A DNA stretch of 64,000 nt from assembly GCA_015064735.1 (NCBI GenBank), contig SVRP01000004.1, forward strand, positions 12,800-76,799, written 5' to 3'. This document shows positions 19,450 through 36,070 of this stretch, piece after piece. Made by a program: the position numbers and the translations under genes. This DNA comes from Oscillospiraceae bacterium. GTDB taxonomy: Bacteria; Bacillota; Clostridia; Oscillospirales; CAG-272. The first letter of the stretch is position 1. Every line of letters begins with the position of its first letter. A model generated the notes under the pieces. It had not been told where the DNA came from. It saw only the letters and a list, made by a program, of their open reading frames with translations, and did no database searches.

Positions 19450-19497
19450 AAAAAGGAAACGCGCTGTCTTAAATGTTAAAAGGAGACAGCGCGTTTT
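19450..19497 (-). terminator. intrinsic terminator of the lipid kinase gene
   Basis: AAACGCGCTGTCT...AGACAGCGCGTTT hairpin. The T-run lies on the minus strand (complement of the A-run 19448-19454). Confidence 0.75.
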
Positions 19498-20526: not shown

Positions 20527-20554
20527 TTGAGAAAAGTCGTATTTCTGATATAAA
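20527..20554 (+). promoter_or_regulatory. candidate promoter for the plus-strand structured element
   Basis: TTGAGA (20527-20532), 16-nt spacer, TGaTATAAA (20546-20554). The predicted start falls at about 20560, the first base of helix P1. Confidence 0.4.
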
Positions 20555-20557
20555 AAA

Positions 20558-20788
20558 GAGGCTGAGTCATTTAGATGCAGAAGTCGTGAAAGCGTTCTCG
20601 TCGGCGTACAAAAGTACGCCAGAGGGCGTTTTCGCGGCTAAAAAACACACATAAAATGAAATTTGAGAGATCTATCTCGAAAATTTCTACAAAAAATCCG
20701 CTTTCACTATCATTTTTCGGATAGCAAAAGCGGGTTTTAATTTTTATTTATTCGTGTGTTTTTGATCTGCGCTAAATGACTCAGCCCC
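20558..20788 (+). ncRNA. candidate structured non-coding RNA (unclassified); a DNA-level inverted-repeat element is the alternative
   Basis: Nested helices: 20558-20581/20766-20788, hairpin 20582-20639 (4 G-U pairs valid only on the + strand), 20641-20650/20754-20763, hairpin 20658-20687, hairpin 20698-20733. No ORF of 60 aa or more. Confidence 0.4.
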
Positions 20789-20796
20789 TTTAAATT

Positions 20797-22215
20797 TTAG
20801 TTTTTAGTTTCCGATACAGATTCGATACTGTCCTCGGAGTTGTTTTCGGACTCAACAGCGGGAGCCGTTTCCTCAAGCACAAGATTGTCGTTTTCGGAAT
20901 ATTCTCTGCGGAATCTCTTCCACATGGGCGCGCAGATAAACAGAACGGCGCACCCTAAGAGAGATACGATTATCCAGGAGAATACGACGGGAGTCCATCC
21001 CGAGAATTGAGGAGGAAGCTTTTCGAACTTGAGGGTAGAGAGCCAAGCGAAAACGATAGTTCCCACAGAAGAACCGATGTAGGTACAAGCGTTAAGTACA
21101 CCGGAGAACAGCGAAACCTTTCCGCTCTTGACAAATCGCTTCGGAACAACAGTAATCAACATGAGATTGATTCCGTGCATATTCGCAACGATAACAGCCA
21201 TAAGAAGGATAGAGAGAAACGCGGAGTTTATCTGGAATACAAATAGCATGAGAACCGCGCTTGCAATAACTGCGGAGAAAACGAAGATCATAGCGGAACA
21301 GAAAACCTCATTTTTGAACAGCTTGCGGTGAATGAAATCGTAAGCTGCGAAGCTCAGGATTCCAAATACTGCAAGAATTACCGCAGAAAGGGTTGAAGCA
21401 AATTCGCCGAGACCAAAGGATTCCTTAATAAGGGTAGGAGCCCATTGCTCGATGCCGTCTCTCATTACACCCTGGAAGATTATGCCCATGAATATGAGTA
21501 CAAGGGGGAGAATAACGAAAGAGGGAAGCGGAATACCCGATTTTGCCTTTGAGCCTTTCTTCTTTGAAAGATCGGCATGAATGGGATTAACAAGAAGCTT
21601 GGGTGCCGAAACAGTCCAGCAAGCGCAGATAGCAGCACCCATAGCTGCGCAGATAAGCATTACCCATCTCCAGTTAAGCCCTATGAATGAGGTATCGCAA
21701 AGGAGAGGACACATTATAAAGAGAAGGATGGTTGCAAACTGAGAGCCCCACGAAACTCTTACTGCGGCGTAGGAATATTCCTCGTCGTTAAGATACATGG
21801 ACATTATGCGTACCATGGGAGGCCAGAGCATAGAATGAGCCACACCGTTTACAGACCAGAGAACAACCATGAGAACGATATTGTCAATGGAAGCAACGCC
21901 GGGAACAGCCATAAGAATATTGGTGGTTGCGGCAAGAGCAAGACCACCGGTTAACATATACTGAGCCTTTATCTTGTCTCCTATAAATCCGCAGACAACC
22001 TGACCGATACCGTACGAAATAGTCATACCGGTAAGGATCACCGCAAGCTGAACCTTAAGATCGTCGGCAACAAGACCGGTTGCCTCTCCGAAATCACGGA
22101 TAACGTAAAGCATCATGGCGTTGAAGTTCTTTCTCGTCATATAGCTTCCAAAATAAACCAACGTACAAAGCCACGAAATTATCTTCGCCTTTCTACTTAT
22201 AGCGAGTGAAGCCAT
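20797..22215 (-). CDS. MFS transporter (organophosphate:Pi antiporter-like N-terminal motif)
   Basis: 12-TM-like hydrophobic profile. YMTRKNFNAMM resembles the GlpT/UhpC Y..RKNF motif. ATG 22215 preferred over TTG 22263. Confidence 0.8.
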   Translation of the reverse strand: MASLAISRKAKIISWLCTLVYFGSYMTRKNFNAMMLYVIRDFGEATGLVADDLKVQLAVILTGMTISYGIGQVVCGFIGDKIKAQYMLTGGLALAATTNILMAVPGVASIDNIVLMVVLWSVNGVAHSMLWPPMVRIMSMYLNDEEYSYAAVRVSWGSQFATILLFIMCPLLCDTSFIGLNWRWVMLICAAMGAAICACWTVSAPKLLVNPIHADLSKKKGSKAKSGIPLPSFVILPLVLIFMGIIFQGVMRDGIEQWAPTLIKESFGLGEFASTLSAVILAVFGILSFAAYDFIHRKLFKNEVFCSAMIFVFSAVIASAVLMLFVFQINSAFLSILLMAVIVANMHGINLMLITVVPKRFVKSGKVSLFSGVLNACTYIGSSVGTIVFAWLSTLKFEKLPPQFSGWTPVVFSWIIVSLLGCAVLFICAPMWKRFRREYSENDNLVLEETAPAVESENNSEDSIESVSETKN

Positions 22216-33616: not shown

Positions 33617-33661
33617 AAAAAGTGGCTGTCTCAAATGAAAATTTGAGACAGCCACTTTTTT
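33617..33661 (+). terminator. intrinsic terminator
   Basis: AAAAAGTGGCTGTCTCAAA...TTTGAGACAGCCACTTTTT. Confidence 0.85.
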
Positions 33662-36038: not shown

Positions 36039-36070
36039 AATAAATAAGAATTTGACGGAGGTAGCTGATA

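Follow-up and report, generated by a model that had tools for sequence, protein, structure and literature searches.

A structured intergenic element of gut Clostridia is probably one copy of a dispersed, mobile repeat family that occupies terminator positions

A Dispersed Repeat Family in Herbivore-Gut Clostridia

The window analyzed here is a 64,000-nucleotide stretch of contig SVRP01000004.1 from an Oscillospiraceae bacterium (GenBank assembly GCA_015064735.1). At 20558 through 20788 on its plus strand it carries a structured noncoding element, which lies in a 374-bp gap (20423 through 20796) between two minus-strand genes encoding a DAGK/YegS-like protein and an MFS transporter. An earlier note on this DNA had read the element as a candidate single-copy RNA gene with its own promoter. 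[quoted passage not shown] The family comprises noncoding interspersed repeats of ∼225 to 240 bp in an order of uncultured herbivore-gut Clostridia (Oscillospiraceae-like metagenome-assembled genomes [MAGs]). Its members are multicopy and patchily distributed, abut stop codons, and replace a terminator stem-loop without target-site duplication; their fold is conserved with covariation, and two of its helices, P2 and P5, each favor one strand. The earlier interpretation is supported in part: its description of the gap and of the fold stands, and its single-copy reading does not.

The limits of the repeat unit, GGGGCTG at the start and CAGCCCC at the end, were defined by the similarity among 19 to 77 copies. 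The window copy is a full-length unit of subfamily 1 (GAGGCTG...CAGCCCC; covariance-model match 20555 through 20791) and scores 263 bits on the plus strand versus 27.6 bits on the minus strand with covariance model R1. Pairing of its inverted ends would form P1 and P3, with three hairpins (P2, P4, and P5) enclosed. The 5′ arm of P1 (20558 through 20581) forms the left terminal inverted repeat and its 3′ arm (20766 through 20788) the right one, which ends 8 nt before the MFS stop codon. P2 (20582 through 20639) is a long plus-strand hairpin with an apex, GGCGTAC-N4-GTACGCC (20603 through 20620), that is nearly invariant in all subfamilies. P3 joins 20641 through 20650 to 20754 through 20763 and surrounds P4 (20658 through 20687), the length of which varies from copy to copy, and P5, a predicted intrinsic terminator of the minus strand (20691 through 20738; stem 20733 through 20698, tail ATTTTTTGTA). 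P2, P4, and P5 contain small internal loops only.

All the helices drawn in the earlier note were reproduced computationally. The minimum free energy structure returned by RNAfold for 20555 through 20800 of the plus strand contains P1, P2, P3, and the hairpins at 20658 through 20687 and 20698 through 20733; its energy is −116.1 kcal/mol, compared with −51.5 ± 4.6 kcal/mol in 200 shuffles (z = −14). The minus strand of the same region folds at −97.3 kcal/mol (z = −11.6). The gap is free of any sizeable open reading frame (ORF), as had been claimed: no ORF of ≥30 amino acids lies inside it, and the sole ORF touching it (30 amino acids, minus strand, 20790 through 20882) does so at the 3′ edge. 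Likewise, the classification of the element as a candidate unclassified RNA agrees with a cmscan search of 4227 Rfam families at permissive E-values, in which nothing came near any gathering score and the matches were at chance level.

BLAST and iterated nhmmer searches identified ∼19 full or partial copies on 14 contigs of the window’s own 2.1-Mb assembly (G000), a result that the single-copy reading does not survive. These copies form two subfamilies that share their architecture and differ in sequence: P3 is ACACAC/GTGTGT in subfamily 1 versus AGTCC/GGACT in subfamily 2, and compensated differences run through the entire outer stem of P2. Several copies are truncated or consist of the 3′ module only; the 3′-only copies share a module boundary, beginning at CTAC (GTAG on the minus strand). 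One MAG contig (L148:4937-5390) holds a copy cut off just before this boundary and fused to a 113-residue ORF, for which we found no significant Pfam match. The CTAC boundary may be a recombination breakpoint.

Copies in relatives number in the hundreds, counts there being lower bounds. Of the 24 congeneric species searched, 9 lack any match and several have ≥19. Many of these matches lie at contig ends, as expected of near-identical repeats, and the apparent half copies in genome G008 are themselves contig ends; the family would thereby break MAG assemblies. A search for the exact P2-apex pattern yielded 89 matching stretches, all from MAGs of uncultured Clostridia, Eubacteriales, Oscillospiraceae, or “Ruminococcus sp.” from the guts of goat, sheep, deer, and rabbit. 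Full-length matches to covariance model R1 were found in 31 of 301 genomes of the order, representing 17 of 153 genera and 9 GTDB families; the carriers are usually multicopy, with per-genome counts that are again minimum values. All hosts are MAGs, in which repeats and insertion sequence (IS) elements are under-assembled. No matches were found in IMG/VR or PLSDB, which were searched for carriage by phages or plasmids. The element has no conserved ORF, and the indels in P4 are not multiples of three. With respect to GC skew, copy orientation is suggestive in subfamily 1 and opposite in subfamily 2.

The Fold Covaries and Its Helices Favor Opposite Strands

Compensatory changes, named in the earlier note as a check on P1 through P3, are numerous. 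Across 77 model-aligned copies, divergent subfamilies included, 90.7% of cells hold standard pairs, compared with 42 to 45% in controls with slid 3′ partners. Both sides have changed in 74 of the 84 pairs (slid controls, 49 to 57; shuffles, 53.6 ± 2.8), and the covariation score is 0.383 versus about 0.09; none of 500 shuffles reaches any of the five measures. Covariation extends to all five helices, with changes on both sides at 19 of the 21 pairs of P1 and covariation at all 10 pairs of P3. A U.G pair in P1 is conserved in 64 of the 77 copies, and the P2 apex combines an invariant sequence with a variable loop. Alignment with MAFFT followed by RNAalifold on 64 copies did not recover P1 and P3; hmmalign and the covariance model were used.

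To assess strand asymmetry, 64 distinct copies were projected with hmmalign. The plus-strand G-U pairs of P2 noticed earlier in the window copy prove to be a feature of the family: P2 has 191 G.U versus 22 A.C cells, and among the 64 copies its plus strand is the more stable in 61 (−32.2 vs. −22.7 kcal/mol). P5 shows the reverse, with 14 G.U versus 128 A.C cells on the plus strand and a minus strand that is the more stable in 59 (−21.0 vs. −14.9 kcal/mol). The plus strand of P4 has 58 G.U versus 4 A.C cells, yet its folding energy is without strand preference. As a whole, the element folds better as the plus strand in 52 of the 64 copies.

The Element Takes the Place of Terminators at Gene 3′ Ends

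A terminator scan called the minus strand of P5 as the only strong terminator, with 14 pairs (including 2 G.U) followed by AUUUUUU. The terminator lies ∼60 nt past the MFS stop codon, and the A-run that encodes its U-tract is conserved across copies. The scan, the strand stability, and the gene context bear out the proposal that the hairpin at 20698 through 20733 would terminate the MFS mRNA; P5 has the features expected of an intrinsic terminator, namely a GC-containing hairpin, an immediate U-tract, and a position downstream of a stop codon. As a T-rich tract also follows P5 on its plus-strand side, the terminator is probably bidirectional.

Gene context was examined for 61 nonredundant full-length copies from relatives, considering genes of ≥100 codons. 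For 46 of 57 copies, a gene on the 3′ side runs into the element (minus strand), its stop codon lying 2 to 34 nt from that end. The 5′ end is in addition entered by a gene in 29 of 56, the stop codon being 1 to 33 nt off, such that the unit fills the convergent spacer. Where the 5′ side faces a gene start, a promoter region of ∼80 to 180 nt lies between. Since copies abut stop codons, they would be cotranscribed with these genes, and a neighboring gene is predicted to be transcribed into the element in the great majority of copies. The family may in this way supply 3′ ends to many housekeeping genes.

Boundaries were examined using near-identical copies in G008 and G010, which are shared exactly from GGGGCTG to CAGCCCC and sit in unrelated flanks, rich in A to the left and in T to the right. 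Young copies have identical P1 sequences. No direct repeats or target-site duplications were found at the ends of the near-identical copies, nor in a filled/empty pair at the transketolase locus. There, G008 carries the element, and two metagenome strains that encode an identical protein carry a plain palindromic terminator in the same place, within flanks 95.5 to 98.2% identical to G008. In the filled allele the element replaces the stem-loop between an A-tract and a T-tract; the terminator of the empty allele is perfectly palindromic and bidirectional (TTAACTAAAAAAG-CACAAACGCGCGCGTTTGTG-CTTTTTTAGTTAA). In three cross-species comparisons with G000 the element likewise stands in place of an unrelated terminator, and presence/absence polymorphism is accordingly documented by one strain-level and three cross-species pairs. 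Three further look-ups for empty alleles found none. The earlier note’s alternative, a MITE-like DNA element, comes closer to the truth than its RNA gene: the copies are dispersed and have terminal inverted repeats, and the flanking target-site duplications of that alternative are absent.

A distant species, with flanks ∼72% identical in tblastx matches, likewise has an element of the same orientation in its transketolase slot, and that copy shows compensatory changes in P1, P2, and P5. Either the element has long been kept there or the slot has been used twice. At the window’s own locus, the element is kept in all 23 contigs read from other assemblies (which encode an identical DAGK protein); in the closest species this locus has different neighbors.

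The empty-allele terminator was also inspected for symmetry. In L162:2187-2238 and L163:1996-2047 its palindrome is perfect over 46 nt and takes in 13 nt from each A/T-rich flank (TTAAC T AAAAAAG ... CTTTTTT A GTTAA). This symmetry extends beyond the needs of termination and hints at a hairpin-templated origin.

A Model for the Family and Points against It

At the window locus, the MFS-operon transcript would enter the minus strand of the element and end at P5 (14-bp stem and U6), and termination at this point would insulate the downstream DAGK-like gene. Where genes converge, plus-strand transcripts would gain P2 and P4 in their 3′ untranslated regions (UTRs) and stop at the T-rich plus-strand tail of P5. 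We favor a role of the remaining structure in propagation at the DNA level, with P1 and P3 pairing the ends and the invariant P2 apex being recognized by a trans-acting protein; template switching at the A/T tracts would be an alternative route. That P5 terminates transcription and that P1, P3, and the P2 apex serve propagation are both inferred. The family would then be largely selfish, and the working terminator that it supplies would explain why it is tolerated or co-opted.

Several observations weigh against this model. Target-site duplications are lacking, which is unusual for a classical MITE. At the transketolase locus, the filled and empty alleles differ by 2 to 4.5% overall, so this pair does not represent a fresh insertion event. 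The covariation alignment was fitted to the structure of the model, and many of the double changes are inherited within subfamilies of related sequences. The covariation of P1 and P3 is itself demanding: their arms lie on opposite sides of P5, and the closed fold therefore requires either read-through RNA or single-stranded or extruded DNA. Finally, neither an autonomous partner nor a transposase was found, with the transposase search covering two families (Y1_Tnp and IS110).

Y1_Tnp/RAYT (PF01797) gave no match in G000, G003, G004, G008, or G013, and a RAYT/IS200 partner was rejected on its absence from these main carrier genomes. An IS110 bridge RNA was rejected as well: PF01548 scores above its cutoff in 2 of 17 carriers versus 5 of 17 noncarriers, and the internal loops of the element are too small. 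A search for a longer autonomous element, which covered G000 and 732 kb of loci from relatives, detected no matching ends at a spacing of 0.3 to 6 kb.

Alternative Explanations

Among the alternatives, a cis-acting RNA that serves the host survives best, and we regard it as unlikely. Here the five-helix fold would act in read-through 3′ UTRs, mainly on the plus strand, as a protector of mRNA 3′ ends, a processing site for RNase III or RNase Y, or an insulator, and mobility would be secondary. Such a role would account for the strong covariation in all helices (P1 and P3 included), for the plus-strand G.U bias of P2 and the conserved U.G of P1, and for the better folding of the plus strand in most copies. 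The GC-rich base of P1 beside the A/T tracts could moreover make the closed element a giant bidirectional terminator, and the transketolase slot is filled in two species by copies that differ by compensatory changes. However, P5 has U-tracts on both sides and lies between the arms of P1 and P3, so the synthesis of most transcripts, whichever side they come from, should stop with at least one arm still missing. In addition, ∼30% of copies occupy tandem gene contexts without known plus-strand transcription, and close species with 0 to ≥19 copies, together with the persistence of 3′-half-only copies, give the pattern of a parasite rather than that of an essential host element.

A more radical form of the mobile reading, in which the family is a new kind of mobile terminator cassette that is independent of transposase or uses an unknown enzyme and has a fold that functions when single-stranded, strikes us as improbable. 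P1 and P3 would join the ends, the P2 apex would recruit a host or other protein, and the unit would displace the terminator stem-loops resident between A- and T-tracts, with template switching as one possible route, paying its way with a bidirectional terminator and a 3′-UTR hairpin. If this were true, these bacteria could exchange their terminators as modules, and the fold would constitute a new class of structured nucleic acid; movement without a classical transposase would be a new mechanism. That either the propagation mechanism or the fold is new in kind seems to us doubtful.

An independently transcribed, trans-acting plus-strand RNA gene family, which is the earlier note’s reading made multicopy, is very unlikely. 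The conserved covarying fold without an Rfam match and the plus-strand bias of P2 suit it, as does a sigma-70-like word upstream of the window copy. The words of that proposed promoter, TTGAGA-16-TATAAA, are indeed present (20527 through 20554, plus strand), but they lie outside the repeat unit in a unique left flank that is conserved in no other copy. A promoter scan does not call the site; over the region it reports 2 promoter-like sites versus 2.0 expected by chance from shuffles, and it found no conserved promoter inside the element, in which only ∼27 nt separate the 5′ end from P2. Stop codons adjoin the copies on one side or both, P5 is suited to the opposite strand, and truncated and half copies are common. 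Of the marks of a structured noncoding RNA family, the element displays a covarying structure; it matches no curated family, and no conserved promoter of its own was found.

The weakest candidate, a single-stranded-DNA recombination site (integron attC- or HUH-target-like) that exchanges genes or terminators and uses P2 as its folded recognition hairpin, fits the structured plus strand of P2 being antisense to the abutting gene (as are attC bottom strands), the missing target-site duplication, the invariant apex around a variable loop, and the consistent CTAC boundary of 3′-only copies, but is hardly credible given that ordinary conserved flanking genes occur with or without the element, that the Y1/RAYT enzyme is absent from most host genomes, that no integrase or recombinase was seen beside the copies examined (no systematic check was made), and that the element shows no similarity to the cassette junction at 36043 through 36427. 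The idea of a cassette bounded by attC was rejected on the first of these grounds: conserved genes occur with and without the element, and hence it does not travel with particular genes.

Neighboring Genes and Short Palindromic Terminators

The MFS transporter gene (20797 through 22263, minus strand) has its stop codon at 20797 through 20799, adjoining the 3′ end of the element; 8 nt separate it from the last C of the unit, and the MFS transcript would enter the minus strand of the element. The downstream DAGK/YegS-like gene (19520 through 20422, minus strand) starts 135 nt past the 5′ end of the element and has its own ribosome-binding site as well as its own leader and promoter region (20423 through 20557). 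A candidate extended −10 box in that region (TGTATAAT; 20485 through 20478, minus strand) was identified solely by its match to the consensus. In a comparison of 17500 through 24000 with the closest congener, G023 (L043), the block of MFS, histidine-kinase, and response-regulator genes upstream of the element is not syntenic; in that species the DAGK-like gene directly follows a different, 198-residue gene and a family copy lies on its other side; the block may be an accessory insertion.

The window also contains REP-like, perfectly palindromic bidirectional terminators of the form (A)nGGGGCTGTCTCAAAT-N3-5-ATTTGAGACAGCCCC(T)n at 33622 through 33655 and 55592 through 55623, with a degenerate copy near 19461 through 19492. 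G000 has 22 exact palindromes of this type and ∼50 with ≤2 mismatches; G004 has 37, and most other species have 0 to 4. Their arms resemble P1 of the long element, and they may be collapsed derivatives of it or an independent mobile terminator family. A truncated subfamily 2 copy in the window (33662 through 33719, plus strand; the 5′ arm of P1 and half of P2) stands directly 3′ of the first of these palindromes. Subfamily 2 copies nearly always do so, palindrome first and element second (G000 C29:128688-128943, C14:106137-106391, C12:1335-1588, C12:5660-5826, C20:7785-7960; window 33622 through 33719), and subfamily 1 copies do not. Insertion of the element into the loops of pre-existing short palindromes was considered and rejected: carriers G003, G008, G013, and G014 have none of the GCTGTCTCAAA palindromes, and P1 does not vary among young copies.

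Comparison with Known Systems

The family sorts with the small structured interspersed repeats, an already known kind, and a full-text literature search found no published description of it. It is MITE-like in being short, noncoding, multicopy, and intergenic, with P1 (14 to 25 bp) as terminal inverted repeats and P3 as a second inverted segment; a target-site duplication and a cognate autonomous IS with the same ends were not found. Nor did the genomes and copies examined show a RAYT gene (REP/RAYT), co-occurrence with a DEDD transposase and two large guide-bearing internal loops (IS110/IS1111 bridge or seek RNAs), or travel with an upstream cassette gene and a nearby integrase (integron attC sites). 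We suggest that structured intergenic regions of this type in gut Clostridia be annotated as one repeat family rather than as separate noncoding RNA candidates.

Within Rfam, the best cmscan match is to the Listeria small RNA rliE (RF01459), whose long closing stem likewise surrounds a hairpin resembling a terminator; with a score of 23.7 bits, a gathering score of 90, and E = 0.15, this similarity of architecture is at chance level and does not amount to membership. REP/BIME elements (PMC3733652) share with the family the character of palindromic, terminator-like repeats at gene ends. The window’s own genome has ∼30 to 50 short REP-like palindromes (GGGGCTGTCTCAAAT-N4-ATTTGAGACAGCCCC) with P1-like arms, and a GTAG word follows P5 on the minus strand. 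Unlike in REP, where the two abut, the U-tract lies between this word and the stem, the carriers searched have no Y1_Tnp gene, and the unit is ∼6 times the length of a REP.

The resemblance to BOX, RUP, ERIC, Correia/NEMIS, bcr1, and EFAR is broader (PMC10969869, PMC3184786, PMC3733652). These repeats too are nonautonomous and intergenic, with inverted ends that close a stable fold; they are cotranscribed with their neighbors and undergo lineage-specific bursts in copy number. The 5′ and 3′ modules seen here recall the modular or truncated copies built from boxA, boxB, and boxC. In this class most families generate target-site duplications, and for some a cognate IS is known (PMC10969869, PMC3184786, PMC3733652), whereas the present element comes with neither duplication nor detected partner and replaces a terminator stem-loop between A- and T-tracts.

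BOX is one precedent, and the closest analogue is the pneumococcal SPRITE, a small terminator-like noncoding repeat with A-run and T-run ends for which target-site duplication is not established (PMC3049150). SPRITE is strongly enriched near gene 3′ ends, those of convergent genes especially, and is patchy among close species (PMC3049150). In each of these respects (terminator-like character, A/T ends, lack of target-site duplication, 3′-end position, and patchiness) the element is similar. SPRITE, however, is a single 18-bp duplex with a U-rich tract, is shorter than 200 bp, and is confined to S. pneumoniae and S. mitis (PMC3049150), whereas the element spans ∼230 bp and has five covarying helices, a three-way junction, and inverted ends of 14 to 25 bp; it occurs in at least nine families of its order, and the two share no sequence similarity. 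With helices tuned to opposite strands and a complex fold found across an order, the family would be an unusually clean case of a terminator-replacing repeat.

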